A DNA stretch of 64,000 nt from Escherichia phage GoldenSnicker. Under the pieces are notes generated by a model. It ran no database searches. It worked only from the letters and a program-made list of their open reading frames with translations, and was not told the DNA's origin. The stretch's first letter is position 1; each line of letters starts with the position of its first letter. The stretch lies in sequence record OR896832.1; one strand, given 5' to 3'. Shown piece after piece: positions 4,844 through 31,453 of this stretch. A program made the position numbers and the translations under genes.

Positions 4844-4877
4844 AATTGATTCTCCTAGTTCGTTTCGGTATGTGTGT

Positions 4878-4906: not shown

Positions 4907-4919
4907 CAACTTTTTTGAA

Positions 4920-5264: not shown

Positions 5265-5271
5265 ATAATGG

Positions 5272-7234: not shown

Positions 7235-7700
7235 TTTCACCTCGTTTTGTTAAACGTTCACGAATATCATTGAGGATACTACAAAATTCCGATTCAGTCA
7301 ATATAGTCTTTAACGGATCGGTTCCACCTATACTATGACGTAATTTCTTATTTCCGGTAGAGAGTAATGCTTTACAAAATGCTGGGTTATTCCGTGCCAT
7401 CGTAACAAATGCCAGATGTACCAGTCTGTAATAATGCTCACTCATTCGATGAATCGGGCGACCCTGAAAATATAACATGTGATTCTCAATCTTTTCAGTT
7501 CTTCCGGTTCTTTTTGCTTTGCCACCGTGCATCAAAAAGATTTCTCTTTGTCTCTGAGGGTTCTTAAATCTTAGCCCCTGTAAAAATCCTTCTGTGCTGT
7601 TAATATCGCAACCAAATAGACGGAATGGTCTTTTATTGAAATTACTCAATTCACCCGATGGATAAGGTCCACCCGCATAGATATCAATTTCAGAAGTCAT
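7221..7700 (-). CDS. NADAR (DUF1768/YbiA-like) domain protein
   Basis: YAGGPY...LSNF...PF...F.S.EGFLQGLRF pattern resembling YbiA/NADAR. Confidence 0.5.
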   Translation of the reverse strand: MTSEIDIYAGGPYPSGELSNFNKRPFRLFGCDINSTEGFLQGLRFKNPQRQREIFLMHGGKAKRTGRTEKIENHMLYFQGRPIHRMSEHYYRLVHLAFVTMARNNPAFCKALLSTGNKKLRHSIGGTDPLKTILTESEFCSILNDIRERLTKRGENVNS

Positions 7701-7872
7701 TGAAACTAATCTCGCTAATCAGAGAGAACGGATCATAATCGTCATTAGGAATATCGATAGTAATCGAATGAGGATTTACCCATACACCAAACTGGTCTTC
7801 TTCGGTGAATACTTCGGTATGGATTTCGTGGATGTTTACATTCATAGTTTTCATAATAAAATTCCTTAACAA
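7690..7872 (-). CDS. hypothetical small protein
   Basis: 60-aa acidic ORF upstream of the NADAR gene. Confidence 0.35.
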   Translation of the reverse strand: MLRNFIMKTMNVNIHEIHTEVFTEEDQFGVWVNPHSITIDIPNDDYDPFSLISEISFNDF

Positions 7873-7899
7873 TCAATAACTTACAAAATCATATAGCCA

Positions 7900-7930
7900 A
7901 AATATAGGCGGGATTATTTCCCGCCGTTTA
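7900..7930 (-). terminator. rho-independent terminator
   Basis: hairpin ggcggga-ttatt-tcccgcc with U-rich flank on minus strand, downstream of gene 31. Confidence 0.55.
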
Positions 7931-7936
7931 AAATCA

Positions 7937-8260
7937 TTAACCGTAAACTACCACAATATTCTGTTTGTGCGTTACAGTCCATTTCAGGTCGATCTCTTCT
8001 TCCTTCTTAACGCCGTTAATAACGTCTGGATGAGGAACTTTATTCATCTTGCCATGTGGCAGTAAAACAGTTTTACCCAGCAATTCTTTATCTACCGTTT
8101 CACCGATATCAATAATCTTACCTACCAGCGGAATCTCGCCCATAGTGCGCTTTTGCTCAATAATGATCCCCATAGAGCTTTTTACTTCTGTCCCTGCGCT
8201 TTCTGCTTTAGCTTCAATGATCACATAGTCACCAAGTGCTTTAGGAGTTTTAACGGTCAT
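7937..8260 (-). CDS. 31: co-chaperonin GroES-like
   Basis: 107 aa; GDYVII, VPHPDV and size/position match T4 gp31. Confidence 0.7.
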   Translation of the reverse strand: MTVKTPKALGDYVIIEAKAESAGTEVKSSMGIIIEQKRTMGEIPLVGKIIDIGETVDKELLGKTVLLPHGKMNKVPHPDVINGVKKEEEIDLKWTVTHKQNIVVVYG

Positions 8261-8301
8261 AATTTTATTACCTCTTCAAATCAATACAGTTTAATGATGA
8301 A

Positions 8302-8622
8302 TTATTTATAAATTTCGACGATCTGCGCTGGAGTCAGCCCGTCTACATTAATCAGACTATCAAGCCCAAAACTACGGAAACCTTCAACTGCAATTTCATA
8401 TACTGGCAAAGATGTTTCTGATTCTTTACGCGGTTTTTCAACATTAGGAACTAACCACTTTTCGTATGTTTCGAAAGGCATCAGTGCCGGATCTCGCGTG
8501 GCGATCATCTCACGGACAGCACCATCTTTCTTAGTAAACTGCAAAGAGTGAGTACCGACCGAAAACATTTTCTTTAGTGCTTCACGAAGTGCGATATTAT
8601 CAACTTGTTCAGTCATTATCAA
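8302..8622 (-). CDS. hypothetical protein
   Basis: 106-aa ORF between gp31 and cd. Confidence 0.4.
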   Translation of the reverse strand: MIMTEQVDNIALREALKKMFSVGTHSLQFTKKDGAVREMIATRDPALMPFETYEKWLVPNVEKPRKESETSLPVYEIAVEGFRSFGLDSLINVDGLTPAQIVEIYK

Positions 8623-9115
8623 TACCCTTCAAATCAGTCAATAATGCTTTTGGAATACGCGTGATTGTAATATCTGCATTATTCAGAATATCAGCCCAAT
8701 CACGCCCACCATTTCGATCATATGTGTCGCAATAGTATAGATGTTTAATACCACTGTTTGCAATTGCTTTAGCGCAATCTGGACACGGTGAAGCAGTACA
8801 CCACATACTAGCGCCTTCAATCGATACACCGCTACGGGCAGCAAACAAAATAGCATTTAATTCAGCATGGATCTCGTTTTTCTGTGACCATGCACTATGC
8901 TCTGGTCGTTTTTCTGGGATCATTTTGCCGTCATCATCCAGCCAACCGTTTTTATGTGCATGACAGCTACAATTTACTTGCCCTGCTGGAGTTCCGTTAA
9001 ATCCAGTAGAAATGATTCGCCCGTCTTTTTCGATCAGTGCGCCTACCTTCCACGAAACACATTTAGAGTTCTTTGCGATCAGATAGGCGATCTGCATGTA
9101 AGTTTGTGACAACAT
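8609..9115 (-). CDS. cd: dCMP deaminase
   Basis: HAELNAI and PCPDCA zinc-binding deaminase motifs; 168 aa. Confidence 0.85.
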   Translation of the reverse strand: MLSQTYMQIAYLIAKNSKCVSWKVGALIEKDGRIISTGFNGTPAGQVNCSCHAHKNGWLDDDGKMIPEKRPEHSAWSQKNEIHAELNAILFAARSGVSIEGASMWCTASPCPDCAKAIANSGIKHLYYCDTYDRNGGRDWADILNNADITITRIPKALLTDLKGIDND

Positions 9116-9136
9116 AATATAATCCTCACATAGTAA

Positions 9137-9340
9137 TTAACCGTATACGCGAAAGTATTCTACTGATCCGTCGCTATACTGTTTTACATTGAATGTATTC
9201 ACACCATGATTATTTCTCATGATGACATATACACTGCGACGTTCATCGCTAAACGGCATAACTGGCGCTGGTTCAATATCAACACTAAAACCACGTTTAG
9301 CAAGTGCTTCGCCTAATTGCTTGAGTTTATCGGTAAACAT
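9137..9340 (-). CDS. hypothetical small protein
   Basis: 67-aa ORF. Confidence 0.4.
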   Translation of the reverse strand: MFTDKLKQLGEALAKRGFSVDIEPAPVMPFSDERRSVYVIMRNNHGVNTFNVKQYSDGSVEYFRVYG

Positions 9341-10218
9341 TAAAAGTCTCCGTAGTTAACCTGAAAACATTCTACACCAATTGAGCGGTACATGTCAACC
9401 ACTTGATCACGGTCATCTACTGCCAAAACAACATGATAACGCGGTGCAATTTCAGAGAAGAAAATCTCTTTCTTTACTTCATGATCGGGACGACGATCAT
9501 TAGTTTCACGTTGAAAGTGATCACTAGGTTCAATACCCTGTTCACGCAGCCATTGCAGAGTATCTTCTTCGCAAACATCCTCACGCCCTGAGCATGTAAT
9601 GATACGATAGCCATTATCACGATACAGTTTAAGCATTTCGATCACTTGCGGACGAGGTTTATCTTCTTTGACCTTTGTCCAGTCAAACGGATGACGACCG
9701 CCCTTATCCGCTAATGTCCCATCAATATCAAAGATCACTGCCTTTGGCAGCATGGTATTCGGTTTGTATACTTCTTGACCCATATATTCCTGCATCAGAT
9801 AAAATTGGTTGCGCAAATGAGAAAGTGGAATTGCTTTCTCGCCGCGATAGAAATTACGTTTCTTTAGTGTCTCAAATGATTCATTGAACACTTGTTCAGT
9901 ATACACCGCGTTAAATTCTTTTGCAAGTTCTTTGTAGAATACACGATGTTTTTCTTTCAGGTTGGTATCAGAGATAATGATACTCAATCCGCGTGATAGA
10001 GTCTCACGAGCAATCATTCTCTGAATAGACTCTACCAGCTTTTCTTTTTCCTTAGTATACTTGTATTTCAAATGCGAGTCAACACCAAACAACATAAGAC
10101 GAAGATCATCACGATTCACATTACGATAATTGCTAAACCGTTTACATGTTTCCATCGCCCATGTAGTTTTACCAGACCCAGAACAACCAACGGTTAAAAT
10201 CACTTCACATTTCGGCAT
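9340..10218 (-). CDS. pseT: polynucleotide 5'-kinase/3'-phosphatase
   Basis: P-loop GCSGSGKTTWA, HAD motif FDIDGTLA, C-terminal VECFQV...GDF as in T4 PseT; start at ATG overlapping the o-spanin stop (TAATG). Confidence 0.85.
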   Translation of the reverse strand: MPKCEVILTVGCSGSGKTTWAMETCKRFSNYRNVNRDDLRLMLFGVDSHLKYKYTKEKEKLVESIQRMIARETLSRGLSIIISDTNLKEKHRVFYKELAKEFNAVYTEQVFNESFETLKKRNFYRGEKAIPLSHLRNQFYLMQEYMGQEVYKPNTMLPKAVIFDIDGTLADKGGRHPFDWTKVKEDKPRPQVIEMLKLYRDNGYRIITCSGREDVCEEDTLQWLREQGIEPSDHFQRETNDRRPDHEVKKEIFFSEIAPRYHVVLAVDDRDQVVDMYRSIGVECFQVNYGDF

Positions 10219-10550
10219 TATTTCTCCTTCGGTTTGCACCGTTCCTCATTAAGTTCTTTTCGATAATAACACATGATCAACTTACTTTCAAGTGTATATC
10301 TCTTAATATCCGCAAGCCAGACTCTGAATTTTTGGGAGTCCTCCCACGACATAGAAACTCTAGGTTTACCGTCTATTGTATCCACTTTCAGGTCAATGTC
10401 AACTTTTTCTATTGGTGCTGGTAGTGGAGGATGTAATTTCGGTTCCTGTGAATAATGGTCCATTGTACACGAAGAAAGCGCAAATACAATAGGCAAAGCG
10501 AAGACATGGATTATGGAGGTGTGAAAATTCTTATGTGCTTTCTTAAACAT
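10218..10550 (-). CDS. o-spanin (outer-membrane lipoprotein lysis protein)
   Basis: signal peptide with lipobox LSSC, Pro-rich mature region; adjacent to the i-spanin and pseT as for T4 pseT.2. Confidence 0.55.
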   Translation of the reverse strand: MFKKAHKNFHTSIIHVFALPIVFALSSCTMDHYSQEPKLHPPLPAPIEKVDIDLKVDTIDGKPRVSMSWEDSQKFRVWLADIKRYTLESKLIMCYYRKELNEERCKPKEK

Positions 10551-10666
10551 CCAGTGTATCACGAAAATTGAAAACACCATCAGGATAATAATGCTTGCAC
10601 CTATCCACAGATAATCAACCAGATTAAAATTGCTTATCTGCTCTTGTGTAGGCAATATTTCTATGC

Positions 10667-10990
10667 TCATTTAGTAGCCTCCTTTAATTCTTCGGTAAAC
10701 TCCTTAAATGAGTCATTAAGCTGTTTCTCTACCAACTTGGGTTTTTGTGCTACTACATAGCCTCGTGTAGCGTCTTTCATTGCTTTGTTTTGTTCTTCTG
10801 CAAACTTAGTTCTTATTCCGTACATCTCCTTTTGTAGTGAGTCTACGACCTTCATCTTTTCATCGGTCTTTTTCTTATACTCTGTAAATTCCCGATTCAG
10901 TCGATCTACCTCCTTTTTATTTTCCCACCACATATTGCCACCTACCCCTAGCAACACAGAGATGATAACAATGTATATCAGCTTTGACAT
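10667..10990 (-). CDS. i-spanin (Rz-like)
   Basis: N-terminal TM helix, coiled-coil-like charged remainder; GGGGGG SD before ATG; listed ORF start at 11008 is a TTG. Confidence 0.55.
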   Translation of the reverse strand: MSKLIYIVIISVLLGVGGNMWWENKKEVDRLNREFTEYKKKTDEKMKVVDSLQKEMYGIRTKFAEEQNKAMKDATRGYVVAQKPKLVEKQLNDSFKEFTEELKEATK

Positions 10991-11011
10991 ATTACCCCCC
11001 AACGACAAAAG

Positions 11012-11035
11012 GCGGGGAACTAGCCCCGCTTATTA
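11012..11035 (-). terminator. rho-independent terminator
   Basis: hairpin gcgggg-aactag-ccccgc plus U-run on minus strand, downstream of rnlA. Confidence 0.55.
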
Positions 11036-12205
11036 TTACCAATCAATCTTATCAGCCGGAATCAGTTTCTTATAATTCCGTAGATAGTAAGTTTTCATTG
11101 AATCCAGAATACGGTCATAATCAAGACCATCAAATGCAATCATCAGACACATGAAAATATATGCTTGTGCATCACCATGTTTACGTGATTCGATAGTCGC
11201 ATTTGATGCATATGTCTTTCTGTCTTCTCCCGCGTGTGCGTTATAAAATTCTGTTGCTGTCGTGAAGGCATTGCGAAGAATAGACCTGAATGCTTCCTCG
11301 AATAGCTCGATTCGTTCCAGTGCTTCCGGTTCGCCTTCATATGCAGCACGCAAATCATCGGTTTCGCTTTCTACGACATAGTAGATCAGGTTATTAGGAA
11401 ACATCGATGTGTTTTTAATGTTATGCACACCAATATACCATTCACTCTTCACCTTGAACATTTGACCGTCTTTAGTGCGTGCAACAATTCCTTCGATACC
11501 TTCTGCGATCCGAACTTCATCAAGAATATTGCTAAAACGCGCTGAATCAACCTGTAACGCATTTACCAGATGAGGACGTAGGATTGCGTCAGAAAATAGC
11601 ATTTGATGCGGTACGTACTCTCCTGTGACGTTATGGCGTACATTCAGAAGTGTTAGCGACGGTTCAGAATATTCTACAACAATTCGGTTGCTGGGCGCTG
11701 TATATTCAAAGTTGAAAGTATAATCAGACCCAATATCAGCAATCTTAGCGCGTAGATCCGCATACTTCTCTGAATACAGAAGACCGTTTGCTCTCTCTGC
11801 CTGGCTTGAGTACAAGGCCGCTTTAGACTTCAACTGAACATAGCCATTATCAATGTATGTGCTTACTAGACTACCGTCCATTTTGTCCATGACCATTTCC
11901 ACATCTTCCGGCTTAAAGCGAGCGCGATCATTCTCGCCTAAATTAAAAAACTTCTCCATAGGACGAGATGCAATGCGGACCGGACGACCTTTATCGTCAA
12001 TTTCAAACATGATCCCGCGACACTCTAACGCATCTGGTTTATTCCACATTTCCGGTTTGCTCAAGTACAGATAACTAAAAATGCGCATACGGGTTTGCAT
12101 CGCCGTAATTTCATCTTTGTAATAGAACGTATCAGATCCGTCACATAGTGCCATCAGATTTTTGAACAATGCTAAAACTTTTTTGTTGTTTTCTTTTGTT
12201 GACAT
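11036..12205 (-). CDS. rnlA: RNA ligase 1
   Basis: PDALECRGIMFE, ASRPMEKFFNLGEN, KMDGSLVSTY (active-site Lys), KDRKTYA as in T4 Rnl1 (gene 63). Confidence 0.85.
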   Translation of the reverse strand: MSTKENNKKVLALFKNLMALCDGSDTFYYKDEITAMQTRMRIFSYLYLSKPEMWNKPDALECRGIMFEIDDKGRPVRIASRPMEKFFNLGENDRARFKPEDVEMVMDKMDGSLVSTYIDNGYVQLKSKAALYSSQAERANGLLYSEKYADLRAKIADIGSDYTFNFEYTAPSNRIVVEYSEPSLTLLNVRHNVTGEYVPHQMLFSDAILRPHLVNALQVDSARFSNILDEVRIAEGIEGIVARTKDGQMFKVKSEWYIGVHNIKNTSMFPNNLIYYVVESETDDLRAAYEGEPEALERIELFEEAFRSILRNAFTTATEFYNAHAGEDRKTYASNATIESRKHGDAQAYIFMCLMIAFDGLDYDRILDSMKTYYLRNYKKLIPADKIDW

Positions 12206-12602
12206 AATTTGTGTTCCATTCTGGTTTAAATTTGGTGATCAAAACAGGTTCTTCGATATCGGCAGTGCTTATAATATCTTTACCCGTTGGATTCTCGATG
12301 TACAACTCAAAACACTGGCGGTAATAGAATGTTACTGTCTTACCTTCCTCTAGCGCCTTATGAATATTCTTACTCTTGCGAGTATCCGCTGTTGGTGTTT
12401 GTCTGTTAATGCTAGTCCGGTAATAATTGATCCGCTTTCTGAGATTAACAGTCTGACCAATGTATACCAGTTCATCATCAACCACAATAGCGTAAAGAAC
12501 ATTTAAACGGTTTTTCTGAGGCGGTAGAATCACATCACCATCTTTACACTCTAAACATGAATATTTAACGAATCCATAGTTTTCTATTAGCTCATTAATC
12601 AT
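12141..12602 (-). CDS. denA: GIY-YIG nuclease, endonuclease II-like
   Basis: VLYAI...VYIGQT...RKRINYYR GIY-YIG core; sits between rnlA and nrdB like T4 denA; could instead be a Seg-type homing enzyme. Confidence 0.55.
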   Translation of the reverse strand: MINELIENYGFVKYSCLECKDGDVILPPQKNRLNVLYAIVVDDELVYIGQTVNLRKRINYYRTSINRQTPTADTRKSKNIHKALEEGKTVTFYYRQCFELYIENPTGKDIISTADIEEPVLITKFKPEWNTNYVNKRKQQKSFSIVQKSDGTM

Positions 12603-12626
12603 TATCCTTTCCTCACGTCACAACAA

Positions 12627-12650
12627 AGGCGGGATTTCTCCCGCCCACCT
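12627..12650 (-). terminator. rho-independent terminator
   Basis: hairpin ggcggga-tttc-tcccgcc plus U-run on minus strand. Confidence 0.5.
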
Positions 12651-12652
12651 TA

Positions 12653-13051
12653 TTAACTTTCCAGAATATCGCGAGCTTCGTTACGCTCCTTGATGATTTT
12701 CAGGACAAATTCCAGTTTTTCTTTGTTCAGCGTTCCATTTTCCATTGCTTCTTTGACGGTAAACACTCCGCCACCTTGCCCGTATACAGTGACAGTGATT
12801 TCACCTAACATCGTGGTATGAAAACCGCCAATTTTCGGTGATTCGAAAGAAACAATTACCTCGCGAACAGTATTACCGTCGTTGATTTCTGAGAGGGTAA
12901 TGTCGTTTTTGTAGGCGGTTGCTTTAACCATACGGATCAGCATAGTCTGATCTGGGGAGATGGTCATTTTGTCCATTGCATGTTGCAATGCAGCGTAACC
13001 GAAAACTTTAACGAAGTCCAGAACATCTTTGCGAGTTTGAAATTTAATCAT
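12653..13051 (-). CDS. hypothetical protein
   Basis: 132-aa ORF. Confidence 0.45.
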   Translation of the reverse strand: MIKFQTRKDVLDFVKVFGYAALQHAMDKMTISPDQTMLIRMVKATAYKNDITLSEINDGNTVREVIVSFESPKIGGFHTTMLGEITVTVYGQGGGVFTVKEAMENGTLNKEKLEFVLKIIKERNEARDILES

Positions 13052-13084
13052 CTTGATACTCCTTAGTTGTTTTGGTATGGGAGT

Positions 13085-13114
13085 ATCTTACTACTCCCGT
13101 GATATGCTGTCAAC
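13085..13114 (-). promoter_or_regulatory. early promoter cassette
   Basis: TTGACA (13114..13109) and TAAGAT with gggagta/tactccc inverted repeat. Confidence 0.45.
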
Positions 13115-13310
13115 TGCTTTTTTATGCAACCGCAAACATCAACATTTGAACATTCTTGGCTGTCTGGCTTTCAAAGTTCTGACATTCTTTGATAATGTCC
13201 TCTACTTTCTCGCCGGAGATCTCCGCGTAAGTTTCGATTGCCATTTTCAGTACCGCGTCAAAGTTGTTCATTTGATTCTCCTTAAAGTGTATTTCGTTTC
13301 GATGGGGGTA

Positions 13311-13339
13311 TATTACTACCCCCGTTTCATGCTGTCAAC
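13311..13339 (-). promoter_or_regulatory. early promoter cassette
   Basis: TTGACA (13339..13334), 17 bp, TAATAT; inverted repeat gggggta/tacccc(c). Confidence 0.5.
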
Positions 13340-13557
13340 TACTTTTTAATGACAAGTTCGAATTTTGCTACCTTGCGTCCTCGTTTATTGAAAGCAACCC
13401 ACGGACGGTTTTCAATGTAGAACAATTCTTCACCAATAATGAATACTGGCTGATTGTAAAGGCAACCCATCAGGTCACGCTGGCGAATGGTAGTAGATTC
13501 GTATACTTCGCCTACTACAAAGTGTTTGCTGATAGAGTCGGTGCAAGTAAATTTCAT
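13339..13557 (-). CDS. hypothetical small protein (internal start)
   Basis: listed ORF reads through a promoter; Met at MKFTCTD is the likely start. Confidence 0.4.
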   Translation of the reverse strand: MKFTCTDSISKHFVVGEVYESTTIRQRDLMGCLYNQPVFIIGEELFYIENRPWVAFNKRGRKVAKFELVIKK

Positions 13558-13624
13558 TTTGATTCTCCTTTGTTTTCTTGATGGGAGTATCTTACTACCC
13601 CCGTTATTCAGTGTCAACTACTTT

Positions 13625-13843
13625 TTACTTGTTGTATTCATTCCACCACTGGGTGAGCTTATCAATTATTTTTGTGTTTCTATCCAACTTCTCCCACCGT
13701 TTTCTAGGGTTTATCAACCGGAATAGGTAAGGTGTACTTGTTAAGTGAACTCGGTCAATGTAGTGATTGATGTACTGCTTTTCGATTCTAAGTTTCATCT
13801 TTTTACGATGAAAATATGCAATGACTTGTTCTTCTGTTTCCAT
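13625..13843 (-). CDS. hypothetical small protein
   Basis: 72-aa basic ORF with promoter 13868-13896 upstream. Confidence 0.4.
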   Translation of the reverse strand: METEEQVIAYFHRKKMKLRIEKQYINHYIDRVHLTSTPYLFRLINPRKRWEKLDRNTKIIDKLTQWWNEYNK

Positions 13844-13867
13844 ATGTTCCTCCGTTTCGATGGGTGC

Positions 13868-13896
13868 ATTATGCTATACCCCGATCCGATTGTCAA
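13868..13896 (-). promoter_or_regulatory. sigma70-type early promoter
   Basis: TTGACA (13896..13891), 17 bp, CATAAT (13873..13868). Confidence 0.55.
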
Positions 13897-13902
13897 CACC
13901 CA

Positions 13903-13928
13903 ATAACAAAAAAGTCGCCACTATGGGC
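13903..13928 (-). terminator. rho-independent terminator
   Basis: hairpin gtcgcc-catagt-ggcgac plus U-run on minus strand. Confidence 0.55.
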
Positions 13929-13943
13929 GACTTTGAACAAACA

Positions 13944-14420
13944 TTAATCATGACCGTGATTTGCAATATCCGCTCGCGTCTTATCTTTGTGATTTCCTAC
14001 GTCAAAGACACGATAACCATTTTCACGCAAAACTTTAATCACTTCTGGGTTATCCTCAAAGACTCCGACAACTTCATCTTTATCAAAGGATTTAATTACC
14101 TCTAATTTTATGTGATAGTCTTTACGGGAATCGGTACGGCCTCTCATAAAGATTTTATCAAAACACACCCCGTTAGAAATTAACCAATCAATTGTTTCCA
14201 TGTAAGCATGTGAACTTCGTCCGGTGAGGATGTAAATCAAATGCCCGTTGTCGGAAAGAGCATTAATAACACGAATTACATCGTAAATGGGGGAATCACC
14301 CCCACATGCCTTGTTATATTCGATCCATGACTCGACTTTATCAAGATTTTCAGTTGGCATCTTTGCTAGTCGATGCGTTGGATCTGTGATCGTAAAATCT
14401 AAATCGACAAAATATATCAT
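13944..14420 (-). CDS. HAD-family phosphatase (PseT phosphatase-domain-like)
   Basis: N-terminal DLDFTIT (DxDxT), TGR, K and DN motifs of HAD fold; 158 aa. Confidence 0.6.
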   Translation of the reverse strand: MIYFVDLDFTITDPTHRLAKMPTENLDKVESWIEYNKACGGDSPIYDVIRVINALSDNGHLIYILTGRSSHAYMETIDWLISNGVCFDKIFMRGRTDSRKDYHIKLEVIKSFDKDEVVGVFEDNPEVIKVLRENGYRVFDVGNHKDKTRADIANHGHD

Positions 14421-15577
14421 AGATATTTCCCGAATCGGTTGTAGTCATCGTCTGTTAAATCGGTATTAACCTGAGATACCAGATACATAATCTCTACTTC
14501 TTGCGCCGCGTTTTGAACTTCGTCAGAGTTCAACCATTTACGCATCCACGGTAACGGATGACGACGAACACTAAACGGGCTTTTCAGTCCGGCAGCGCGC
14601 ATACGGGAATCTGCCAGGTATTCTACATAGGTTTTCAGAATTTCCGGTGACAGGTTAGGAATTGCCCCCATTGCGAATAGGTGGTCTACCCATTCTTTTT
14701 CTTGCTCGACAACATCCAGAAAGATTTTCGTTGCTTCGCCTTCAAGTTCTTCCGCAATCTGTTTCCACTCATCACCATCAACCCCCGTTTGCCATTGACG
14801 AATAATGTATTGTGTTCCTTTTAAGTGAAGTTGTTCATCACGCGCAATAAATTTCATGATCTTCGCGTTACCTTCCAGTAAACCACGTTCGGCAAAGCTG
14901 AAAGTACATGCAAAGGACACATAAAAACGGATTGCTTCCAGTGCATTTACGCAGTGTGCACACAGATAAATCGAAGCCATCAGATCTCGTTTTGTATCTT
15001 CAAAAAATCTTCTTGCATCATCTAATGCTGTCTGGTCGTCTCGTTCTTCCCAATAGCGGAGATCTTCTTTTGCATTCTCATACTTACGAATCCAATAAAG
15101 AACATCATCATAATATTTCCCGATAGATTCCGCTCGCTTCATGATAGCAGGGTTATCGATGATCTGGTCGAACTCACTAGCCGGATCAATGAAACAGTTA
15201 CGCATAATGTGTGTATAGCTTCGGCTATGAATTGTTTCGCTGAATGTCCATGTTTGCAACCATGTATCGAGAGTTGGATCAGATACAATTGGACCAAATG
15301 CTGCGGACGGTGCGCGACCTTGAATAGAATCAAGTAATGTCTGATACTTCAAGTTTTCAGTAAAGAAACGCTTTTCAACGTCACCCATATTAAGATATTG
15401 AATACGGTCGGTTGCAAGTGAAATTTCTTCGGGTCGCCAAAAAAATGACAATTGCTTTTCGATCAGTTCTTCAAATACTTGATGACGCTGAATATCATAG
15501 CGAGCGATACCCAACCCACTACCCAGAAACATTGGTTCGTTCATAATATCAACATGTTCGCGGTTAAATACGCTCAT
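14417..15577 (-). CDS. nrdB: ribonucleotide reductase small subunit
   Basis: 386-aa uninterrupted ORF with class Ia R2 features, position and size as T4 NrdB. Confidence 0.85.
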   Translation of the reverse strand: MSVFNREHVDIMNEPMFLGSGLGIARYDIQRHQVFEELIEKQLSFFWRPEEISLATDRIQYLNMGDVEKRFFTENLKYQTLLDSIQGRAPSAAFGPIVSDPTLDTWLQTWTFSETIHSRSYTHIMRNCFIDPASEFDQIIDNPAIMKRAESIGKYYDDVLYWIRKYENAKEDLRYWEERDDQTALDDARRFFEDTKRDLMASIYLCAHCVNALEAIRFYVSFACTFSFAERGLLEGNAKIMKFIARDEQLHLKGTQYIIRQWQTGVDGDEWKQIAEELEGEATKIFLDVVEQEKEWVDHLFAMGAIPNLSPEILKTYVEYLADSRMRAAGLKSPFSVRRHPLPWMRKWLNSDEVQNAAQEVEIMYLVSQVNTDLTDDDYNRFGKYL

Positions 15578-15592
15578 TAATTCACCTCACTA

Positions 15593-15760
15593 TCACTTTT
15601 TAACACAAAAGAACTTAGTATTTCTGTTTATTTCGCTATCCTGCTGCAATTCCTGCACAGCTTCAAAACAATTTTGATATGATGAAAACTCTACGCTGGT
15701 AACAGTTCCTTTATTATATACGCCTACGCTAACGGAAAGCAATAACCATAATGTAGCCAT
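15593..15760 (-). CDS. small hypothetical protein, nrdA-nrdB intergenic paralog 1
   Basis: 55 aa, translated codon by codon: MATLWLLLSVSVGVYNKG...FFCVKK; start overlaps upstream stop (TAATG). Confidence 0.45.
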   Translation of the reverse strand: MATLWLLLSVSVGVYNKGTVTSVEFSSYQNCFEAVQELQQDSEINRNTKFFCVKK

Positions 15761-15933
15761 TAGTTCACCTTTTGTTTTTCAACGCAATATAGATTCATAA
15801 AGCGTTTATTGTCTTCGCGGATAATCTCGCGAACTTTAACGCAATCCTGCTTTGTTGCAAACTCAATGCTTGACATATTTCCGTAATTATACATTGAATT
15901 GCTGATTGCAATCAATAACCATACAGTAGCCAT
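15760..15933 (-). CDS. small hypothetical protein, nrdA-nrdB intergenic paralog 2
   Basis: 57 aa: MATVWLLIAISNSMYNYG...LYCVEKQKVN; TAATG coupling at both ends. Confidence 0.45.
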   Translation of the reverse strand: MATVWLLIAISNSMYNYGNMSSIEFATKQDCVKVREIIREDNKRFMNLYCVEKQKVN

Positions 15934-16100
15934 TATCCTACAACCTCAAAACATTTATCATCAGGAAGAATCGCCCATTCTACACCGTATTCATCCTCGA
16001 CGTAGTAGCAAGTCCCATCATGTCGAGCATCATATTCATCACCAACAACAAAGCTATCAGCTAGCTCAAAATCTACAGCAACACATTTTAATTTGGTCAT
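15933..16100 (-). CDS. small hypothetical acidic protein
   Basis: 55 aa from internal ATG after GAGGA SD; listed ORF start reads through the promoter. Confidence 0.4.
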   Translation of the reverse strand: MTKLKCVAVDFELADSFVVGDEYDARHDGTCYYVEDEYGVEWAILPDDKCFEVVG

Positions 16101-16131
16101 AATAAAATCCTCACTTGTTTTTGATGGTTGT

Positions 16132-16160
16132 ATTATAGCGGGGATTTCTCCCCGCGTCAA
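16132..16160 (-). promoter_or_regulatory. sigma70-type early promoter
   Basis: TTGACG (16160..16155), 17 bp, TATAAT (16137..16132); inverted repeat ggggagaaatcccc nearby. Confidence 0.5.
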
Positions 16161-16168
16161 CACTTATT

Positions 16169-18412
16169 TTACAGCTTGCAAGATGAGCACTCGCTAGCGT
16201 CTTCCGTACCATCAGCACCGTCGCGAACGTTCGCATAATACAGGGTTTTCAGACCGTAATATTGAGCAAACAACATATCATCTAACACATCAGCAATATC
16301 GACTTTACCAGTCTTATAAGTGCTTGGATCGTAGGATGTGTTGGAACTAATCGCCTGATCCACAAACTTCTGCATGATCGCTGCCAGTGTCAGATAAGGC
16401 TTGTTACCTTTCTTGATCAGTGTCCAAAGCAGGTCAATAACATCAGCATTATTCTCTACGTTCGGAATAACCTGATTAAATTGCCCTTCTTTCGATCCTT
16501 TAACCGATACAATCCCGCGAGGCGGTTCAATACCATTTGTGCTGTTAGACACCTGAGAGGACGACTCACAAGGCATCAGCGCCGACAGTGTACTGTTACG
16601 AATGCCATATTTTTTCAGGTCTTCGCGCAGTTCTTCCCAATCCATCTCATACACCGGATCAACCAGTTCATCTACTGTCTTTTTGTACCAGTCGATAGGA
16701 AGTTCACCGCGACCATAGCGTGTTTCGTGCATCAGTTCGCAAGCACCCTTCTCTTTAGCCAGTTGCACACTAGCCTTAATCAGAGCATATTGCAAGCGTT
16801 CAAACGTTTTATGCGTAAACTCGTTAGCGTCTTCATATGTGAAGAAATTATCTGCTAGATATGATGCAAAGTTAGTCACACCAACACCCAGAGAGCGACG
16901 TTTTTTGGCTGTCAGAGCTTGTTCTACAGGATAATCCTGATAATCTAACAGGTTGTCAAGTGCACGCACCATAACCATAGCAATGCGTTCTACTTCTTCC
17001 ATATTTTCGATATCGAAATTACCTAAAACATATGCTGCCAAAGTACATAGGCTAATTTCTGAATCATCACGACCCATCGGTTTTGTAGGCAGAGCAATTT
17101 CACAACACAGGTTAGATTGTTTAATCGGTGCTACATTACGAATAAACGCCCCGTGATTGTTCATGTTGTCTGTGAACGCTGGGTAGATTCGACCAGTGTT
17201 AAAACGTTCAATTGCCACCGCTAAAAACAGGTCTTCGGCTTTAACACGAGTTTTACGAACACTCGGATCTTTTTCCAGTTTTTCGTAAAGCTGGCGGAAA
17301 CCTTCCTCATCTCGGAAGTATAGATCCCACAACAAGCCACCCGCAACATCTGGACTAAACAGAGTAATGTAATCCCGTTTAAGGAATCGCTCTACCATCA
17401 GGTTATTAATCTGTACGCCGTAATCAAGATGACGAATGCGGTTATCTTCCACCCCCTTATTGTTCTTTAACACAATCAGACTTTCAAACTCTAAATGCCA
17501 CATTGGGTAATAGAGAGTCGCTGCCCCGCCACGAATACCGCCTTGTGAGCATGACTTAACGGCAGTCTGAAAATGTTTCCAGAATGGGATAACGCCAGTA
17601 TGACGAACTTCACCATGCCCGATCTTAGACCCTTCCGCGCGAATCATGCCAGCGTTGATACCGATACCAGCACGCTTGCTAATATACTTAATGATTGCAT
17701 TTGCGGTTTCATTAATACCCTGCAATGAGTCATCACTTTCAATCACCACACACGAACTAAATTGGCGTGTTGGGGTACGCACACCTGCCATAATCGGAGT
17801 AGGCAGAGAGATTTGCTTATTCGCAACAGCATTATAAAAATCAATCACATGTTCAAGTCGATTTTCTGTCTCTTCTTGATGCAAGCACATACCGATCAGC
17901 ATATACGCAAATTGCGGTGTTTCGATGATTTTCTTAGTGCTGCGATCCTGAACAAGATATTTCTCTTTTAACTGCATCGCACCAGCATAGGTCATTTTAA
18001 AATCAAGTTTATGGTCGATGAATTTCTCCAGATATTCCACTTCTTCACGGGAATACTTTTGTAGAATTTCGCGATCATATTTTCCGGTTGCAATATTACG
18101 CTCAATATGGCTATAAAAATCAATAGGTTGGAATTGACCGTATACTGATTTACGAAGCGCGAACATTGCAAGGTTACTTGCTACATATTGATAATCAGGC
18201 GTTTCTACAGTGATGTTATCTGCGGCGACCTTAATCAATACTTTCTGGATATCATTGGTAGACATACCTTCTGTCAGAAGTGGTTCAACCATATCAAACA
18301 ATTCATATGGATCAACGTTATGACCTTCGGCTGCCGCTTCCAGAATTTTCATTACTTTTTCTTTTTCAAACGGAACAGTCAGACCGGAAGACTTAACAAC
18401 ATTTTTAATCAT
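16169..18412 (-). CDS. nrdA: ribonucleotide reductase large subunit
   Basis: 747 aa; near-colinear with T4/E. coli NrdA (PTRQFSSCVVIE, NLCCEIA, SALMPCESSSQVSNSTNG, C-terminal CSSCKL). Confidence 0.9.
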   Translation of the reverse strand: MIKNVVKSSGLTVPFEKEKVMKILEAAAEGHNVDPYELFDMVEPLLTEGMSTNDIQKVLIKVAADNITVETPDYQYVASNLAMFALRKSVYGQFQPIDFYSHIERNIATGKYDREILQKYSREEVEYLEKFIDHKLDFKMTYAGAMQLKEKYLVQDRSTKKIIETPQFAYMLIGMCLHQEETENRLEHVIDFYNAVANKQISLPTPIMAGVRTPTRQFSSCVVIESDDSLQGINETANAIIKYISKRAGIGINAGMIRAEGSKIGHGEVRHTGVIPFWKHFQTAVKSCSQGGIRGGAATLYYPMWHLEFESLIVLKNNKGVEDNRIRHLDYGVQINNLMVERFLKRDYITLFSPDVAGGLLWDLYFRDEEGFRQLYEKLEKDPSVRKTRVKAEDLFLAVAIERFNTGRIYPAFTDNMNNHGAFIRNVAPIKQSNLCCEIALPTKPMGRDDSEISLCTLAAYVLGNFDIENMEEVERIAMVMVRALDNLLDYQDYPVEQALTAKKRRSLGVGVTNFASYLADNFFTYEDANEFTHKTFERLQYALIKASVQLAKEKGACELMHETRYGRGELPIDWYKKTVDELVDPVYEMDWEELREDLKKYGIRNSTLSALMPCESSSQVSNSTNGIEPPRGIVSVKGSKEGQFNQVIPNVENNADVIDLLWTLIKKGNKPYLTLAAIMQKFVDQAISSNTSYDPSTYKTGKVDIADVLDDMLFAQYYGLKTLYYANVRDGADGTEDASECSSCKL

Positions 18413-18479
18413 ATTACCTCACTTCATATTTTAGCAGGAACAAGTTTATCCTCCATATTGGGGGCTTTCGCCCCCTTTG

Positions 18480-19700
18480 TTATACTGCCATTTGAGCGGT
18501 GATCGCTGGATGGCTTTGATAGTTGTGAATTTTAAAATCTTTCGGAGTCTTTGTCAATACCTCATCTAAAGATTTAAATTCCGGCAACTCAATTGTTGGT
18601 TTATCAAACGGAACACGGCTTAACTGTTCCATAACTTGATCAAAATGGTTTTTATAAATGTGAGTATCTCCACCAGAGAAAATCAGTTCTCCTACCTCAA
18701 GATCACACATTTTCGCTATGATGTGAGTTAACAGCGCATAGCTGGCGACGTTAAAGGGCAAGCCTAAAAAGCTGTCTACGCTTCGCTGAAACCACATACA
18801 AGACAGTTTACCTTCATTGACGTAGAATTGCACGAAAGGATGACATACACCTAACACAGCATTATGCGTTTCCTGTACGTTCCATGAATCAATGATAATA
18901 CGACGACTATATGGATCATTCTTGATCATGTCAATAACTTTTTGTAACTGGTCTTCCCAAATCTTCGGGCGATAGACATATTCTTCATCGTCTTTAGTGC
19001 TTGATGTGTCTACGTCCATACTAACAAACATCGTGGTATCCGGTGCTATAATATCCCCACCCAGATAATCACTATCAAGCAGATAACCGAAATAACCATC
19101 ATCTACCCATTCCTGGAATCCCCACAAGCAATATGCATCATTAACAAAATTAGATTGAGTCTTCCAGTGGTCTGCTACCAGAATATAATCAAACTCTTCA
19201 TAACGCATACCACGCCAGATAGCACATAAACGGTCTTCTGTTTCATTGGTTGGCGTAAAGTCTTCTACCCACGGGTGTTTAAATGTATGTGTATATTTGC
19301 TCTTAACGCGCTTAATTTTGATTTCACCGTGTGGATGAATCGGTTTGCGTCGCCACGCCATACCATACATATTGCCGACATTATAACCATTGAATCGCAA
19401 AGGATTCTTTTCTTTCATATCAAGGCAGTTTCCGCGCCAAATATCAAAGGCTTCCTCGTCAAACTTGCCGCGTGTAATTTCCTGTAAGCGACGGCGGTCA
19501 AGTGACCCCTCCATAAACCATAGCAACTCGCCAATTATAGAGGCTGTAGCCATCTTTTTAGTGGTCAGTAATGGAAAACCCTTACTTAAATCAATTCGCA
19601 TCTCTGCGCCGAATTTAGAGAGCGTACCTACCCCAGTTCGGTCTTCACGAGGCCAGCCATTATCAAGAACATCACGCAACAGTTTCAAATATTCTTTCAT
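18480..19700 (-). CDS. td: thymidylate synthase with ~110-aa internal insertion
   Basis: ThyA motifs (DRTGTG-like, DSWNV, CHPFVQFY, FLGLPFNVASYALL, GDTHIY); extra segment between the GxxWR and DPxSRR motifs; no intron. Confidence 0.85.
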   Translation of the reverse strand: MKEYLKLLRDVLDNGWPREDRTGVGTLSKFGAEMRIDLSKGFPLLTTKKMATASIIGELLWFMEGSLDRRRLQEITRGKFDEEAFDIWRGNCLDMKEKNPLRFNGYNVGNMYGMAWRRKPIHPHGEIKIKRVKSKYTHTFKHPWVEDFTPTNETEDRLCAIWRGMRYEEFDYILVADHWKTQSNFVNDAYCLWGFQEWVDDGYFGYLLDSDYLGGDIIAPDTTMFVSMDVDTSSTKDDEEYVYRPKIWEDQLQKVIDMIKNDPYSRRIIIDSWNVQETHNAVLGVCHPFVQFYVNEGKLSCMWFQRSVDSFLGLPFNVASYALLTHIIAKMCDLEVGELIFSGGDTHIYKNHFDQVMEQLSRVPFDKPTIELPEFKSLDEVLTKTPKDFKIHNYQSHPAITAQMAV

Positions 19701-19935
19701 CCCACTTCCCCTTTTTCTTTGCTTTCTTACGCAGTTTTGCTACTGTCTCGCTAATGTTAATAAAAATATCGTCTGGACCGAATACAGTAACAGGTCTTGA
19801 TATATCGCTATTTTCTTGTACAGGAAACCATGACGCTTTCGATTCATCATAGAGATATTGCAACCCGTAAAGATCTTCTGCTACTGCGTAGTTTTCATTG
19901 GTTGCCGACCATAATCGAATAATACTGATTTTCAT
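19672..19935 (-). CDS. hypothetical protein
   Basis: 87 aa from ATG overlapping the upstream stop; Lys-rich C-terminus. Confidence 0.4.
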   Translation of the reverse strand: MKISIIRLWSATNENYAVAEDLYGLQYLYDESKASWFPVQENSDISRPVTVFGPDDIFINISETVAKLRKKAKKKGKWDERIFETVA

Positions 19936-20027
19936 TATTGTTCCCGTCCGCAGTGTAAACACCGACTACCAACAAACATCAAAGATTCACCGCAATGTTT
20001 GCACTCATAATCTGTCAGAATTTTCAT
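19935..20027 (-). CDS. 30-aa zinc-ribbon peptide
   Basis: MKILTDYECKHCGESLMFVGSRCLHCGREQ, two CxxC pairs, translated by hand; below the ORF-track size cutoff. Confidence 0.4.
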   Translation of the reverse strand: MKILTDYECKHCGESLMFVGSRCLHCGREQ

Positions 20028-22271: not shown

Positions 22272-22295
22272 AAAGCCTTCCCGAAGGAAGGCTTT
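22272..22295 (-). terminator. rho-independent terminator
   Basis: hairpin gccttcc-cgaa-ggaaggc flanked by A-run and T-run, downstream of gene 32. Confidence 0.65.
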
Positions 22296-26332: not shown

Positions 26333-26370
26333 TTTATAAATATGAACATACTATAAAAGGAGACCCAATA

Positions 26371-29300
26371 ATGGCAGATTTTTCTCAACATTTCAAGGCC
26401 ACATTTGGCTTTGACGCTGGTAATGAAAAGGTCGTCAATGTAGCATTGGCTGATAAGAATGTCAACACCGATGCGGTCAACGTTGAATTTTTCAATTACC
26501 ATAATGGTATTACTCAGTATGACACAACTCGCGGTTATGATCAATACGGAACTACAATCTATCAAAACCGTCCGTATTATGCAAAAGAAGATATCACAAA
26601 GCCAGCAGGTGATTTTGACCCGACTAAATGGCAAGCACTGCGCACGGACCCACGTTGGGATTATATTGCAGCAACTTCCGGTGATACTCCTTTAAAGTCT
26701 GGTGATTATATCGCAGCAGATGGTCAATTTGCAAACTTGACTTTCTCTATGCCAACTAAACCAGCAGAGGGAGACACTATAACAGTAAAAGATATCGGTG
26801 GCAAGTGTGGTGTTAACGAATTATCGTTCTTGAGTACAGGACATGAGTTTTACCATAATGGTAATGTATATAACAGAAAATGGTATTGCACTACCCCGTA
26901 TGCAATGAACTATTTCATCTTTGTTCGGAATCGTTGGCATGTTTATCAGACAGGAACAGAGCCACGCGGTGTGTACGCACAGCCAGCGATTGATGCTATT
27001 CAAATGCAGAATGGTGATCAGGTATTTCGTCGTAGTTCGTTGGGTAATATTACCTTAGTGCTTCCTAAGTTTGCCAACAATGGCGACATGATCCAGACTA
27101 CAGACCTTGACGGATTAACCGCAACCAACCACGTTACGGTTAAAGTTCATGAGCACGCAGAAGAACAATCAATTGGCACGTCCGGTCTAAAAGAGATTAT
27201 CGGTAAGCGTAGCGGTCATGGTGTATTCATCTTTGACAAGACGGAAAACTTATGGCGTTTGTGGGATGGTGATCAGTCTGTTCGTCTTAAACCGATCATC
27301 AATGACACTCGCTTGCAACCTAATAGCTATGTTGCTGTATTTGGTGGTCGTGATGTTACTCTGACGCTGCCGACCAATGTCGAGCTGGGTGATCGTATTC
27401 AAGTTTCTATGCAGTATATGCACGGAAACCAGACTTGCCGAATCATTACCTCAGAAGAGGATACAAAAATCCTTATGCAGAAAAACATGGTTCAGTTTCC
27501 TAAGCGTAGCGAGTACCCATTCAATGGGACCGATACATGGACTGGAGTGTCTGAATTGTCTTTCAACGCTGCAAATGATTATGTACCTTATCTGGAGTTC
27601 TCTTATTCAGAAGGTGATGATGGTAAGAAATACTGGTTGGTGGCACATGCTCACCCGATTGTAGAACGAGTAGATCCGACTCGTAAAGATCGTGTTGGTG
27701 TAATTGCACTGGCTACCCAGACTGAAACGAATAAAAACCATGAAGAGAATCCTAGCGACGAAGTTGCTGTAACACCAAAAATGCTGGCTAATAAAACAGC
27801 CAACGAAACTCGACGCGGTATTGCTCGCATTGCGACTCAAGCGGAAACGCATCAAGATACTGGTTCCAACTTCCTGGATGATGTTATCGTTACACCCAAA
27901 AAGTTAAATGACTGTGTTGCTACCGAAGCCCGTCGTGGTGTGATGGAAATTGCAACCCAGCACGAAACCAATGAAGGTTTAGACGATACCCGCGCTATTA
28001 CTCCTAAGAAATTAGAAGAACGTCGCGCTTCCGAAGATCTAGCTGGTATTGCTGAAATTGTTCAGGCTGGCGGTAGTGCTGCCGCTCGACGTGGCGAAGC
28101 TGGTACAGGGATCTATAACATCAACGACCATGCTAAAATTGTTACGCCACAAAACATCAACGAAGTCAAGGCGACCGAAACTTCCCGTGGTGTTGGCTAT
28201 CTGGCAACTGACGCGGAAGTGCAAGGGGCTACAGAATCAACCCCGCAAGATGCTTTACTAATCACGACTCGCACGCTAACGAAACGTACTGCTACCGAAT
28301 CTCGCACTGGTATCGCTGAAATTGCAACTCAGGAAGAAACAAACTTAGGTCAAAGTGATAACCATATCATCACGCCTAAAAAGCTGCATACTCGCCGCGC
28401 AACGGAAACTTTACACGGTTTAGCAGAAATTGCAACTCAGTCGGAATTTGACGCAGGTCTTGACGATGCTCGCATTTCTACCCCATTGAAGATTAAAACC
28501 TTCTTTGAGAATGCACAGCGTTTGAAAGTAGATCCGACTCAGGGGCTTAACCTTACTGGTGATTTGTGGCAAGGTATCATGATCAGCGGTCTGGATGCAA
28601 CCGAAGACACAAAAGGTGTCTCTAAAGTTGCTACTACTCAGCTTACGGATGCTGGTCAAGATGATACTACAATCATCACGCCTAAAAAGCTGCAAGGCAA
28701 AAAAGCCACCGAAGGTAAAGAAGGTATTATCCGCGTTGGTACTCAAGCCGAAACCGTGGCTGGTACACTGGCTAATGTAGCAATTTCTCCGAAGAACTTC
28801 AAATATGTTGTTCAGACAGAGGATACATGGAAAGCAACCGAAGCGCGTCGTGGATTCTTGAAAGTTGCTACTCAGGAAAACTGTTTTGTTGGTGATAATC
28901 TGCAAGGTTCTACTCAAGAACTAGGAAACTACCAGCATGACGGAATTGCTGTTACCCCTAAAGGATTAAACTACGCACTTGCTAATTTCTTACCTAAGAT
29001 GGCAACCGCTCAGAATAGTTTGAAATTGGGTAACGTAGAGGCCGCTAAATGGGCGCGTAGAGACATTGACCAGACCATAGAGAGCAATTACACGTTTAAT
29101 AAAAACGTTAACGTGAAGGGCGATTTAGAGTGCTTAAAATCAGGTTCCTTTGAAACTCTGTCTGTGACTAAGAACTCGACCGATGTTCCGAGTAATGGTC
29201 ATCTGGTGTTGGGTGAGCGTGGAGTTGACGGTCACACCGGAATTACTCTGCATGGCACAACCGCATCGGAAGGCATGAAAAACTCGTGGTCTATTATCGT

Positions 29301-30111: not shown

Positions 30112-30116
30112 TTAAA

Positions 30117-30132
30117 GGGGGCGAAAGCCCCC
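30117..30132 (+). other. GNRA-tetraloop RNA hairpin GGGGGC-GAAA-GCCCCC
   Basis: perfect 6-bp GC stem with GAAA loop between genes 34 and 35; identical sense-strand hairpin at 18460-18475. Confidence 0.5.
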
Positions 30133-30144
30133 TATGGGGTTATT

Positions 30145-31290: not shown

Positions 31291-31315
31291 TAACAAGCCG
31301 ATCCATGTGGTCGGC
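31291..31315 (+). terminator. rho-independent terminator
   Basis: hairpin gccga-tccatgtgg-tcggc followed by TTTATTTTT after gene 35. Confidence 0.6.
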
Positions 31316-31445
31316 TTTATTTTTATACAGTTGGTTAAATTGTAACCAAAACGAAGAAAGATCTTTAGAATAATAGAAAATTTGTTTCGGTTAAAAATTA
31401 GTCAGTGCCTACGGCACGTCGCGAAGCGATATTTTGTTAACATTC

Positions 31446-31453
31446 TATAAATA
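31446..31453 (+). promoter_or_regulatory. T4-type late promoter
   Basis: exact TATAAATA about 33 nt upstream of the gene 36 ATG. Confidence 0.65.

Follow-up and report, generated by a model that had tools for sequence, protein, structure and literature searches.

Why does one and the same 16-nt hairpin stand at two gene junctions of a T4-type phage, between td and nrdA and between genes 34 and 35, in gene pairs that are read from opposite strands? We examined this in a 64,000-nt stretch of the genome of Escherichia phage GoldenSnicker (OR896832.1), referred to here as the window, which derives from a Krischvirus (RB49-like T4-type coliphage) and shows 96-99% identity to ~58 GenBank phages. 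The window contains two exact copies of GGGGGCGAAAGCCCCC, at 18460-18475 on the minus strand (site 1) and at 30117-30132 on the plus strand (site 2), against a chance expectation of 0, and a third, shorter copy, AGGGGCGAAAGCCCCT, at 5716-5731 on the minus strand (site 3), which has two mismatches relative to the 16-mer. In 100 dinucleotide-preserving shuffles of the window, there were no matches to the 16-mer, even with two mismatches allowed. The first-pass annotation of this DNA had reported the identical pair and a shorter hairpin in an HNH gene, and had counted on more copies than chance would give. The exact copies, their strands and their gene context were confirmed, the shuffles bear out the excess over chance, and the shorter hairpin was found in codons 5-10 of the HNH gene, where it additionally lies 6 nt past the DNA ligase stop codon. 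That annotation had also proposed a genome-wide search for copies; across the whole RB49 reference genome, exact copies are confined to the orthologous td/nrdA and 34/35 sites, the same two junctions, and pattern searches found few looser copies elsewhere. Absent from it were the known stem-loop population, the occurrence of the 16-mer in unrelated phages and the cassette insertion at td/nrdA, all of which are described below.

The GAAA loop is on the mRNA-sense strand in all three copies, each of which begins 4-6 nt past a stop codon, namely that of td (site 1), gene 34 (site 2) and the DNA ligase gene (site 3). At all three sites, the sense strand has the GNRA tetraloop C(GAAA)G with a Watson-Crick closing pair. 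The 16-mer has a predicted RNA folding energy of -13.3 kcal/mol, its 7-bp form at site 2 one of -14.9 kcal/mol and the 14-mer at site 3 one of -10.0 kcal/mol, and the folding calculation that the first-pass annotation had suggested thus gives very stable hairpins throughout (-10.0 to -14.9 kcal/mol). The sense-strand tails are AAUAUGGA at site 1 (U at 2/8 positions), (U)AUGGGGUU at site 2 (3/8) and AAACCUAA at site 3; all are U-poor, as had been described, and none contains the U-tract of an intrinsic terminator. A "terminator" is already annotated at these sites in several GenBank records. The Rfam covariance models gave no match at the gathering score in the whole window, and membership in a known RNA family was rejected.

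Table 1 Positions of the three hairpins, their neighboring genes and signals, and other stem-loops in the window (PeSL, promoter-early stem-loop)
Feature	Position	Strand	Remark
HNH endonuclease ORF	5272-5745	-	Pfam HNH
DNA ligase ORF	5738-7234	-	overlaps HNH ORF
Hairpin 3, A-GGGGC-GAAA-GCCCC-U	5716-5731	-	6 nt past DNA ligase stop (5738-5740)
td ORF	18480-19700	-	ORFs and RB49 reference annotation
nrdA ORF	16169-18412	-	ORFs and RB49 reference annotation
σ70-like promoter TTGACA-17-TAAAAT, 11/12	18529-18557	-	in td 3' end, 54 nt upstream of hairpin 1
Hairpin 1, GGGGGC-GAAA-GCCCCC	18460-18475	-	4 nt past td stop (18480-18482), 47 nt before nrdA ATG (18412)
Spacer 3' of hairpin 1, AAUAUGGAGGAUAAAC-UUG...	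18413-18459	-	read from sequence
Late promoter TATAAATA for gene 34-35 operon	26335-26342	+	motif
Gene 34 ORF	26371-30111	+	ORFs and RB49 reference annotation
Hairpin 2, A-GGGGGC-GAAA-GCCCCC-U, 7 bp	30116-30133	+	4-5 nt past gene 34 stop (30109-30111)
Gene 35 SD (GGGG) and start, UAUGGGGUUAUU-AUG	30133-30147	+	
Gene 35 ORF	30145-31284	+	ORFs and RB49 reference annotation
Canonical intrinsic terminator, stem + UAUUUUUA	31295-31317	+	ends gene 34-35 operon
Next late promoter TATAAATA	31446-31453	+	before gene 36
Sister hairpin GGGCGGGA-GAAA-UCCCGCCU	12627-12646	-	U-rich tail, terminator-like; same design principle
Sister hairpin GCGGGGA-GAAA-UCCCCGC, true PeSL	16138-16155	-	between -35 TTGACG and -10 TATAAT
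Canonical terminators with U-tract	22272-22295, 31295-31317, 41068, 13911		22272-22295: C(UUCG)G, after gene 32
PeSL-type, stem-loop between or over -35 and -10 of a near-consensus early promoter	3757, 4883, 16138, 40242, 3512, 13079, 48453		
"Naked" hairpins, without U-tract or promoter	sites 1 and 2, 45108, 57946		

The late-promoter motif TATAAATA was found at 26335 and at 31446 and nowhere else, which leaves none for gene 35 itself; the best σ70 match at site 2 (9/12, 41 nt upstream) is at chance level. Since the canonical terminator lies after gene 35, gene 35 has to be transcribed through hairpin 2, and this hairpin is therefore not an efficient sense-strand terminator. Hairpin 2 is located between two cistrons of one transcript, in the order gene 34, hairpin, gene 35, with a predicted stability of -13 to -15 kcal/mol, as expected of a stabilizing stem-loop. 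The gene 35 SD begins 3 nt after the end of the hairpin, and the gene 35 ATG (30145) follows the hairpin at 11-12 nt. In an alternative predicted structure, the 3' arm of hairpin 2 pairs with this SD (AGCCCC-CUAU-GGGGUU, 30126-30141, plus strand, -7.7 kcal/mol); this pairing and the main hairpin are mutually exclusive. Hairpin 2 is present, with its stem and GAAA loop, in all sampled Krischviruses (alignment A2) and is missing in T4 and in the Aeromonas phages 44RR and phiAS4, where the 34/35 gap is ~9 nt and the SD overlaps the gene 34 stop codon. Hairpin 2 is thus part of a ~25-nt lineage-specific insertion that has been retained. An apparent insertion at the 34/35 junction of Shigella phage Sf20 was rejected as a junction cassette, as the extra ~330 bp result from an internal duplication/frameshift of gene 34. 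It lies near the gene 34 3' end (locus 860-1345), where the annotated CDS ends at 922 and the normal C-terminus is encoded by another ORF, 907-1344.

At site 1, the best candidate promoter for nrdA sits upstream of hairpin 1. Given this and the absence of a promoter for gene 35 itself, efficient termination at sites 1 and 2 would silence nrdA and gene 35, whose T4 counterparts are essential or important. The td coding sequence contains two near-consensus σ70 promoters (11/12), at 18529-18557 and 18906-18934 on the minus strand, and all 12 of the σ70 matches of at least 11/12 within positions 1-20000 are on the gene-sense strand. The spacer between hairpin 1 and nrdA has a strong SD, GGAGGA, followed 5 nt on by a UUG, while the SD of nrdA itself is GAGGU. 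We also noticed that this UUG opens a possible 9-codon ORF (MFLLKYEVR), the UAA of which is 1 nt before the nrdA AUG, and which is kept in all RB49-type junctions of alignment A1. It is possible that this ORF encodes a leader peptide translationally coupled to nrdA; alternatively, it might be the leftover of a deleted ORF (ATG GAG GAT ... ATA TGA). The part of the spacer in common with the Makalu-type junction described below is the last ~20 nt only.

Alignment A1 shows the site 1 stem and an invariant C-GAAA-G loop in nine Krischviruses, while the lengths of the G and C runs drift: KFS-EC has G7/C6 and PHB13 G6, the C-run of ELT4 is duplicated, and one pair is lost in ECD7. Part of this drift may have arisen in sequencing, as GCGAAAGC is a notorious source of compressions (PMC13037366). 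In ECD7, the 3' arm is one base shorter (GGGGGCGAAAGCCCC) at both td/nrdA and 34/35; the arms have either changed in concert or been affected by a systematic sequencing artefact (compression or homopolymer). The td/nrdA junction of the Pseudotevenvirus RB16 reads ...GCAGTATAA-ACAAA-GGGGGCGAAAGCCCC-TTTCTTAAC, with the td end, the spacer and the hairpin as in the window. Unlike the window copy, the RB16 hairpin is followed by UUUCUU, a U-tract.

Hairpin 3 begins 12 nt past the HNH AUG and spans HNH codons 5-10. The ligase-HNH junction is unchanged in 58 of 58 Krischvirus records. We considered whether the HNH gene is a variable insertion bounded by the third hairpin copy and rejected this, as the junction is fixed in these 58 records and variability begins past the HNH stop codon.

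The hairpins at these junctions are of a kind that is already known, the PeSL stem-loops and the stable tetraloop hairpins of T4 type. Intergenic DNA makes up 8.9% of the window, yet it holds 33 of the 54 strong sense-strand hairpins (ΔG <= -9 kcal/mol in this census). The strong intergenic hairpins typically lie 4-20 nt past a stop codon, most of them lack a U-tract, and the hairpins of the window fall into three groups, canonical terminators, PeSL-type and "naked" hairpins (Table 1). The PeSLs (promoter-early stem-loops) are known from RB49 and phi1 (Arbiol et al. 2010, PMC2839356; Comeau et al. 2014, PMC4122927) and are proposed to be terminator/attenuators as well as recombination sites for modular shuffling; the consensus of the RB49/phi1 stem-loops (SLS) is Gn-loop-Cn (PMC4122927). 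According to Arbiol et al., the RB49 ORFan210 cassette forms mini-circles, the formation of which is mediated by the PeSL stem-loops, and PeSL211/210, the sole stem-loop assayed with a lacZ reporter, reduced expression about as much as rrnB T1 (PMC2839356). PeSL211/210 in RB49 is AGGGGAT-CACGT-ATCCCCT followed by ATACTACAC, with no U-tract. In the window, the true PeSLs at 3757, 4883, 16138 and 40242 show the expected promoter/stem-loop layout. Comparison of 4843-4920 with RB49 4819-5309 also shows that ORFan210 is missing in the window, which has a single PeSL (4883-4901) instead.

As in PeSLs, the focal hairpins are stable intergenic Gn-loop-Cn stem-loops past an upstream stop codon, and at sites 1 and 2 the SD and the start codon of the downstream gene are at the 3' end. 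There is no adjoining near-consensus TTGACA-N17-TATAAT, the best matches being 9/12 at site 2 and, at site 1, 11/12 at a distance of 54 nt upstream. We therefore rejected full PeSL membership, because the promoter component is missing (site 2) or misplaced (site 1). In the PeSL paper (PMC2839356), there is no mention of nrdA or of the td/nrdA and 34/35 junctions.

Other hairpins in the census are worth recording. The most stable intergenic ones are 61037-61065 (minus strand, -21.4 kcal/mol), 16 nt past the gene 43 stop codon and without a U-tract, and 48453-48484 (minus strand, -20.7 kcal/mol), with a perfect TATAAT in the loop and TTGACA just upstream. Between holin gene t (plus strand) and the minus-strand early cluster, which converge, there is a long hairpin at 36926-36953, GAAGGGGAGGCC-GAAA-GGCUUCCCCUUU; with A and T runs flanking it on either side, it resembles a bidirectional terminator, and its GAAA loop is on the minus strand.

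Gain, loss or replacement of an ORF was observed at site 1, in 011D4, Makalu_001, SFHK24, E26 and LF73P4, and, among 58 records, at neither site 2 nor site 3. In 011D4, a foreign N6_N4 DNA methylase cassette, split into two ORFs, is inserted at td/nrdA and is flanked on both sides by a TAA-(A)CAAA-hairpin-A unit, making this the only genome with a duplicated hairpin. No close copy of the methylase was found in 50,697 phage records, where the distant methylases (at most ~75% identity) belong to unrelated phages, nor was a donor of the cassette with the same hairpin found in these records. In Makalu_001, SFHK24, E26 and LF73P4, the junction contains a 100-aa DUF4326 ORF (Makalu_001 locus 456-758, SFHK24 locus 458-760; Pfam E = 6.5e-23) behind a different hairpin, GCGGGGA-G(G/A)AA-TCCCCGC. 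This replacement hairpin has a GNRA loop too (GGAA or GAAA) and in SFHK24 exactly matches the PeSL hairpin of the window at 16138. T4 has the small ORFs nrdA.1 and nrdA.2 at this junction. The breakpoints of the td/nrdA cassettes are at the hairpin edges, as in the PeSL shuffling model.

Outside Krischvirus, the exact 16-mer follows gene 32 in RB43 and uvsX in CfP1, in both cases without a U-tract. The flanks in CfP1 (AACAAC-16mer-AATAAGGTG) resemble those of site 1, with 93% identity over 29 nt. A search for td relatives in IMG/VR yielded six loci, two of which were useful. The bare 16-mer is present in at least 120 unrelated IMG/VR contigs, mostly just past a stop codon, and matches to the motif, some of them partial, were found in 370 GenBank phage records. 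Among the listed IMG/VR copies, 39 of 121, or about one third, have a T-rich tail (at least five T in the next eight positions), and many have an SD and an ATG directly after the 16-mer. Judging from this distribution, the 16-mer is a common, partly convergent solution, and since it is so common in unrelated phages, the two copies in the window may be identical without being related by descent. For the pseudo-T-even phages, the shared flanks suggest additional copying of a ~30-nt unit from place to place.

On balance, we lean towards reading the 16-mer as a promoter-less Gn-loop-Cn punctuation mark that acts as a leaky attenuator and/or a 3'-exonuclease barrier and doubles as a recombination joint. 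The starting points for this reading are established: the sequence, position, strand and conservation of the hairpin, the read-through at 34/35 and the cassette polymorphism at td/nrdA. In the window and RB49 1-50 kb, moreover, the sense strand carries 7 GNRA and 4 UNCG loops among the strong GC tetraloop hairpins and the antisense strand carries none, in a count where the overlapping window and RB49 sequences included some sites twice and 11 special loops are unique. This asymmetry of 11 to 0 argues for selection on the folded mRNA. We infer folding in vivo, attenuation or stabilization, and a recombination mechanism as follows. The hairpin would be transcribed in the sense mRNA 4-6 nt past the td, gene 34 and ligase stop codons and adopt a very stable C(GAAA)G-capped fold. 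Most RNA polymerase would pass it because there is no U-tract, so that nrdA and gene 35 would still be expressed. The ratio of downstream to upstream expression would be lowered through leaky attenuation and/or through a block to 3'-to-5' exonucleases, in which case the mRNA of the upstream cistron would outlive the downstream part after endonucleolytic cleavage. Stem-loops can protect mRNA from exonuclease decay. This reading agrees with the location of the hairpin downstream of td, gene 34, gene 32 and uvsX, where the genes that follow would be required at lower levels. The T4 homologues of gene 32, uvsX and td are abundantly expressed, and in the T4 long tail fibre gp34 is a trimer and gp35 a monomer, a stoichiometry that fits lower gp35 expression. 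The action of the hairpin may depend on translation, because a terminating ribosome would cover its 5' arm. The repeated unit of ~20-30 nt (stop, ACAA, hairpin, AAU.., SD) would, as a side effect, provide short homology for cassette gain and loss.

A precedent for a role in the sense mRNA would be the U-less PeSL211/210, which lowered lacZ expression like rrnB T1 (PMC2839356); this precedent comes from a different stem-loop. Two further points count against the combination of an mRNA role with a joint, in that cassette polymorphism is seen only at site 1 and not at 34/35, and that the duplicated-hairpin state is seen in one genome only (011D4). In the literature searched, we found no transcript-end, half-life or expression data for any Krischvirus.

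A bolder, and in our judgment rather unlikely, proposal is that the promoter-less units (stop, ACAA, GGGGGCGAAAGCCCCC, AAU.., SD) are portable recombination joints that work by a minimal PeSL mechanism. If so, even the conserved core of T4-like genomes would be open to foreign genes coming in and going out again. Template switching or exchange over short homology would be promoted by the sense-strand GCGAAAGC mini-hairpin, and at 34/35 the hairpin would be a 'solo' footprint that one such event left behind. An ORF with its 3' hairpin would then be loosely analogous to an integron ORF with attC, without the integrase.

It is also conceivable, though unlikely, that the element works purely at the DNA level and plays no part in mRNA, either as a scar or joint of cassette recombination, the 'solo' stem-loop that stays behind when an inserted cassette is excised, or as a GCGAAAGC mini-hairpin that serves replication or recombination. 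The two hairpin copies around the 011D4 cassette, the indel hotspot at site 1, the ~25-nt insertion at site 2 relative to other T4-like phages and the mini-circles mediated by PeSL stem-loops (PMC2839356) would all be in line with this idea. The oligonucleotide d(GCGAAAGC), in addition, forms a DNA mini-hairpin of extraordinary stability, which makes polymerases stall and is resistant to SSB (Hirao and co-workers; review PMC13037366). However, the hairpin is intact at both sites in every sampled Krischvirus, where a useless scar would decay, its placement 4-6 nt past stop codons is consistent, and whenever a loop is GNRA or UNCG, it is so on the transcribed sense strand. As DNA, the hairpins of the two strands are predicted to differ in energy by only 0.4 kcal/mol, with parameters that may omit the mini-hairpin bonus.

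The antisense strand reads hairpin + UUUGUUAU at site 1 and hairpin + UUUAAUUA at site 2, and a scan with a terminator consensus called both sites on this strand only. These T-tails explain why the "terminator" labels at least at site 1 of TB34, in Makalu_001 and in CfP1 include the antisense T-tail or sit on the antisense strand. The hairpins could accordingly be read as intrinsic terminators that keep antisense transcription out of td and gene 34, for which a 10/12 promoter-like site at 30424-30396 on the minus strand could provide the transcription into site 2. We consider this very doubtful, in view of the 11 to 0 preference of GNRA/UNCG loops for the sense strand and because the antisense U-tract is not conserved, the corresponding positions being GUUGUUUA in CfP1, GUUAAGCA in RB43 and UCAUUAUC at site 3. 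The A-richness upstream of the hairpins is accounted for by stop codons and AT-rich spacers. Antisense promoter-like matches are at chance level (23 vs 17.8 +/- 4.1), and the plus strand from ~11100 to site 1 has no promoter match of 10/12 or better.

Equally improbable is a translational device, with the hairpin insulating the ribosome-binding site downstream of it or modulating its use. At site 2, the ribosome that terminates on gene 34 would melt the 5' arm, and the freed GCCCCC would pair with the gene 35 SD, so that translation of this gene would be uncoupled and lowered; at site 3, translation of the HNH endonuclease would be throttled by a hairpin that begins so soon after its AUG. The predicted alternative pairing with an SD only 3 nt past the hairpin is compatible with such a switch, as are the tight-coupling layout of T4 and the Aeromonas phages, with the SD overlapping the gene 34 stop codon, and the SD and AUG directly after the 16-mer in many unrelated phages. 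Against it, the alternative pairing is unavailable at site 1, in CfP1 and in RB43, and conservation of the GGGG is accounted for by its function as an SD.

That the hairpin is an efficient sense-strand terminator that divides both gene pairs, td/nrdA and 34/35, into separate transcription units is extremely improbable given the lack of a sense U-tract, the lack of a promoter of gene 35's own and the position of the best nrdA promoter candidate upstream of hairpin 1, even though automated annotations say terminator, the RB16 orthologue has a U-tract and a U-less RB49 stem-loop acted like rrnB T1 in a reporter (PMC2839356). The first-pass annotation had favored RNA stability or processing elements over terminators; read-through into gene 35 supports this preference, but the denial of termination was too strong in light of the UUUCUU tail in RB16 and the rrnB T1-like effect of PeSL211/210.

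What is modestly new is the presence of promoter-less copies in core gene blocks, a Krischvirus-specific copy at 34/35 that is read through, and a copy at td/nrdA that is common to RB16 (there with a U-tract) and marks a cassette point with a two-copy state in 011D4. The gain is mainly one of annotation, since existing labels say "terminator" while the evidence points to a sense-strand hairpin that is read through. The 011D4 and Makalu variants also extend PeSL modular shuffling to promoter-less stem-loops in core gene blocks. If the attenuator or stabilizer reading is true, it would explain unequal expression in tight T4-like operons, for example gp34:gp35, and would provide a compact, portable part for operon tuning.

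Among known systems, the PeSL stem-loop shares with the focal hairpins the phage group, the Gn-loop-Cn form, the location past a stop codon and before an SD/ATG, and a U-tract that is not needed; with site 1 it also shares insertion, deletion and replacement of ORFs, including a filled state flanked by two copies. In contrast to PeSLs, the focal hairpins have no adjoining σ70 promoter and are located in conserved core gene blocks rather than in hyperplastic regions, and site 2 belongs to a late operon. The canonical Rho-independent terminators of this genome likewise have a GC-rich stem with a special sense-strand tetraloop a few nt past a stop codon, whereas the focal sites lack the sense-strand U-tract and read-through is obligatory. 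Our literature search on intercistronic stabilizers of T4 found nothing specific. Extra-stable C(UUCG)G and GNRA tetraloop hairpins are reportedly found in T4 intergenic regions (Tuerk et al. 1988), and the E. coli REP at malE-malF is said to be an intercistronic stabilizer stem-loop (Newbury et al. 1987). As in these cases, the focal element is a stable hairpin in a polycistronic mRNA downstream of the higher-expressed cistron, and the proposed action, as a barrier to 3'-exonucleases after endonucleolytic cleavage, would be the same; its sequence is unrelated to REP. The general pathway of mRNA decay in E. coli is reviewed in PMC3997798. With the DNA mini-hairpin, all three copies share the exact 8-nt core GCGAAAGC at the tip, but while the mini-hairpin is associated with the origins of ssDNA phages and with priming, the focal element is embedded in intergenic dsDNA and its orientation tracks transcription.
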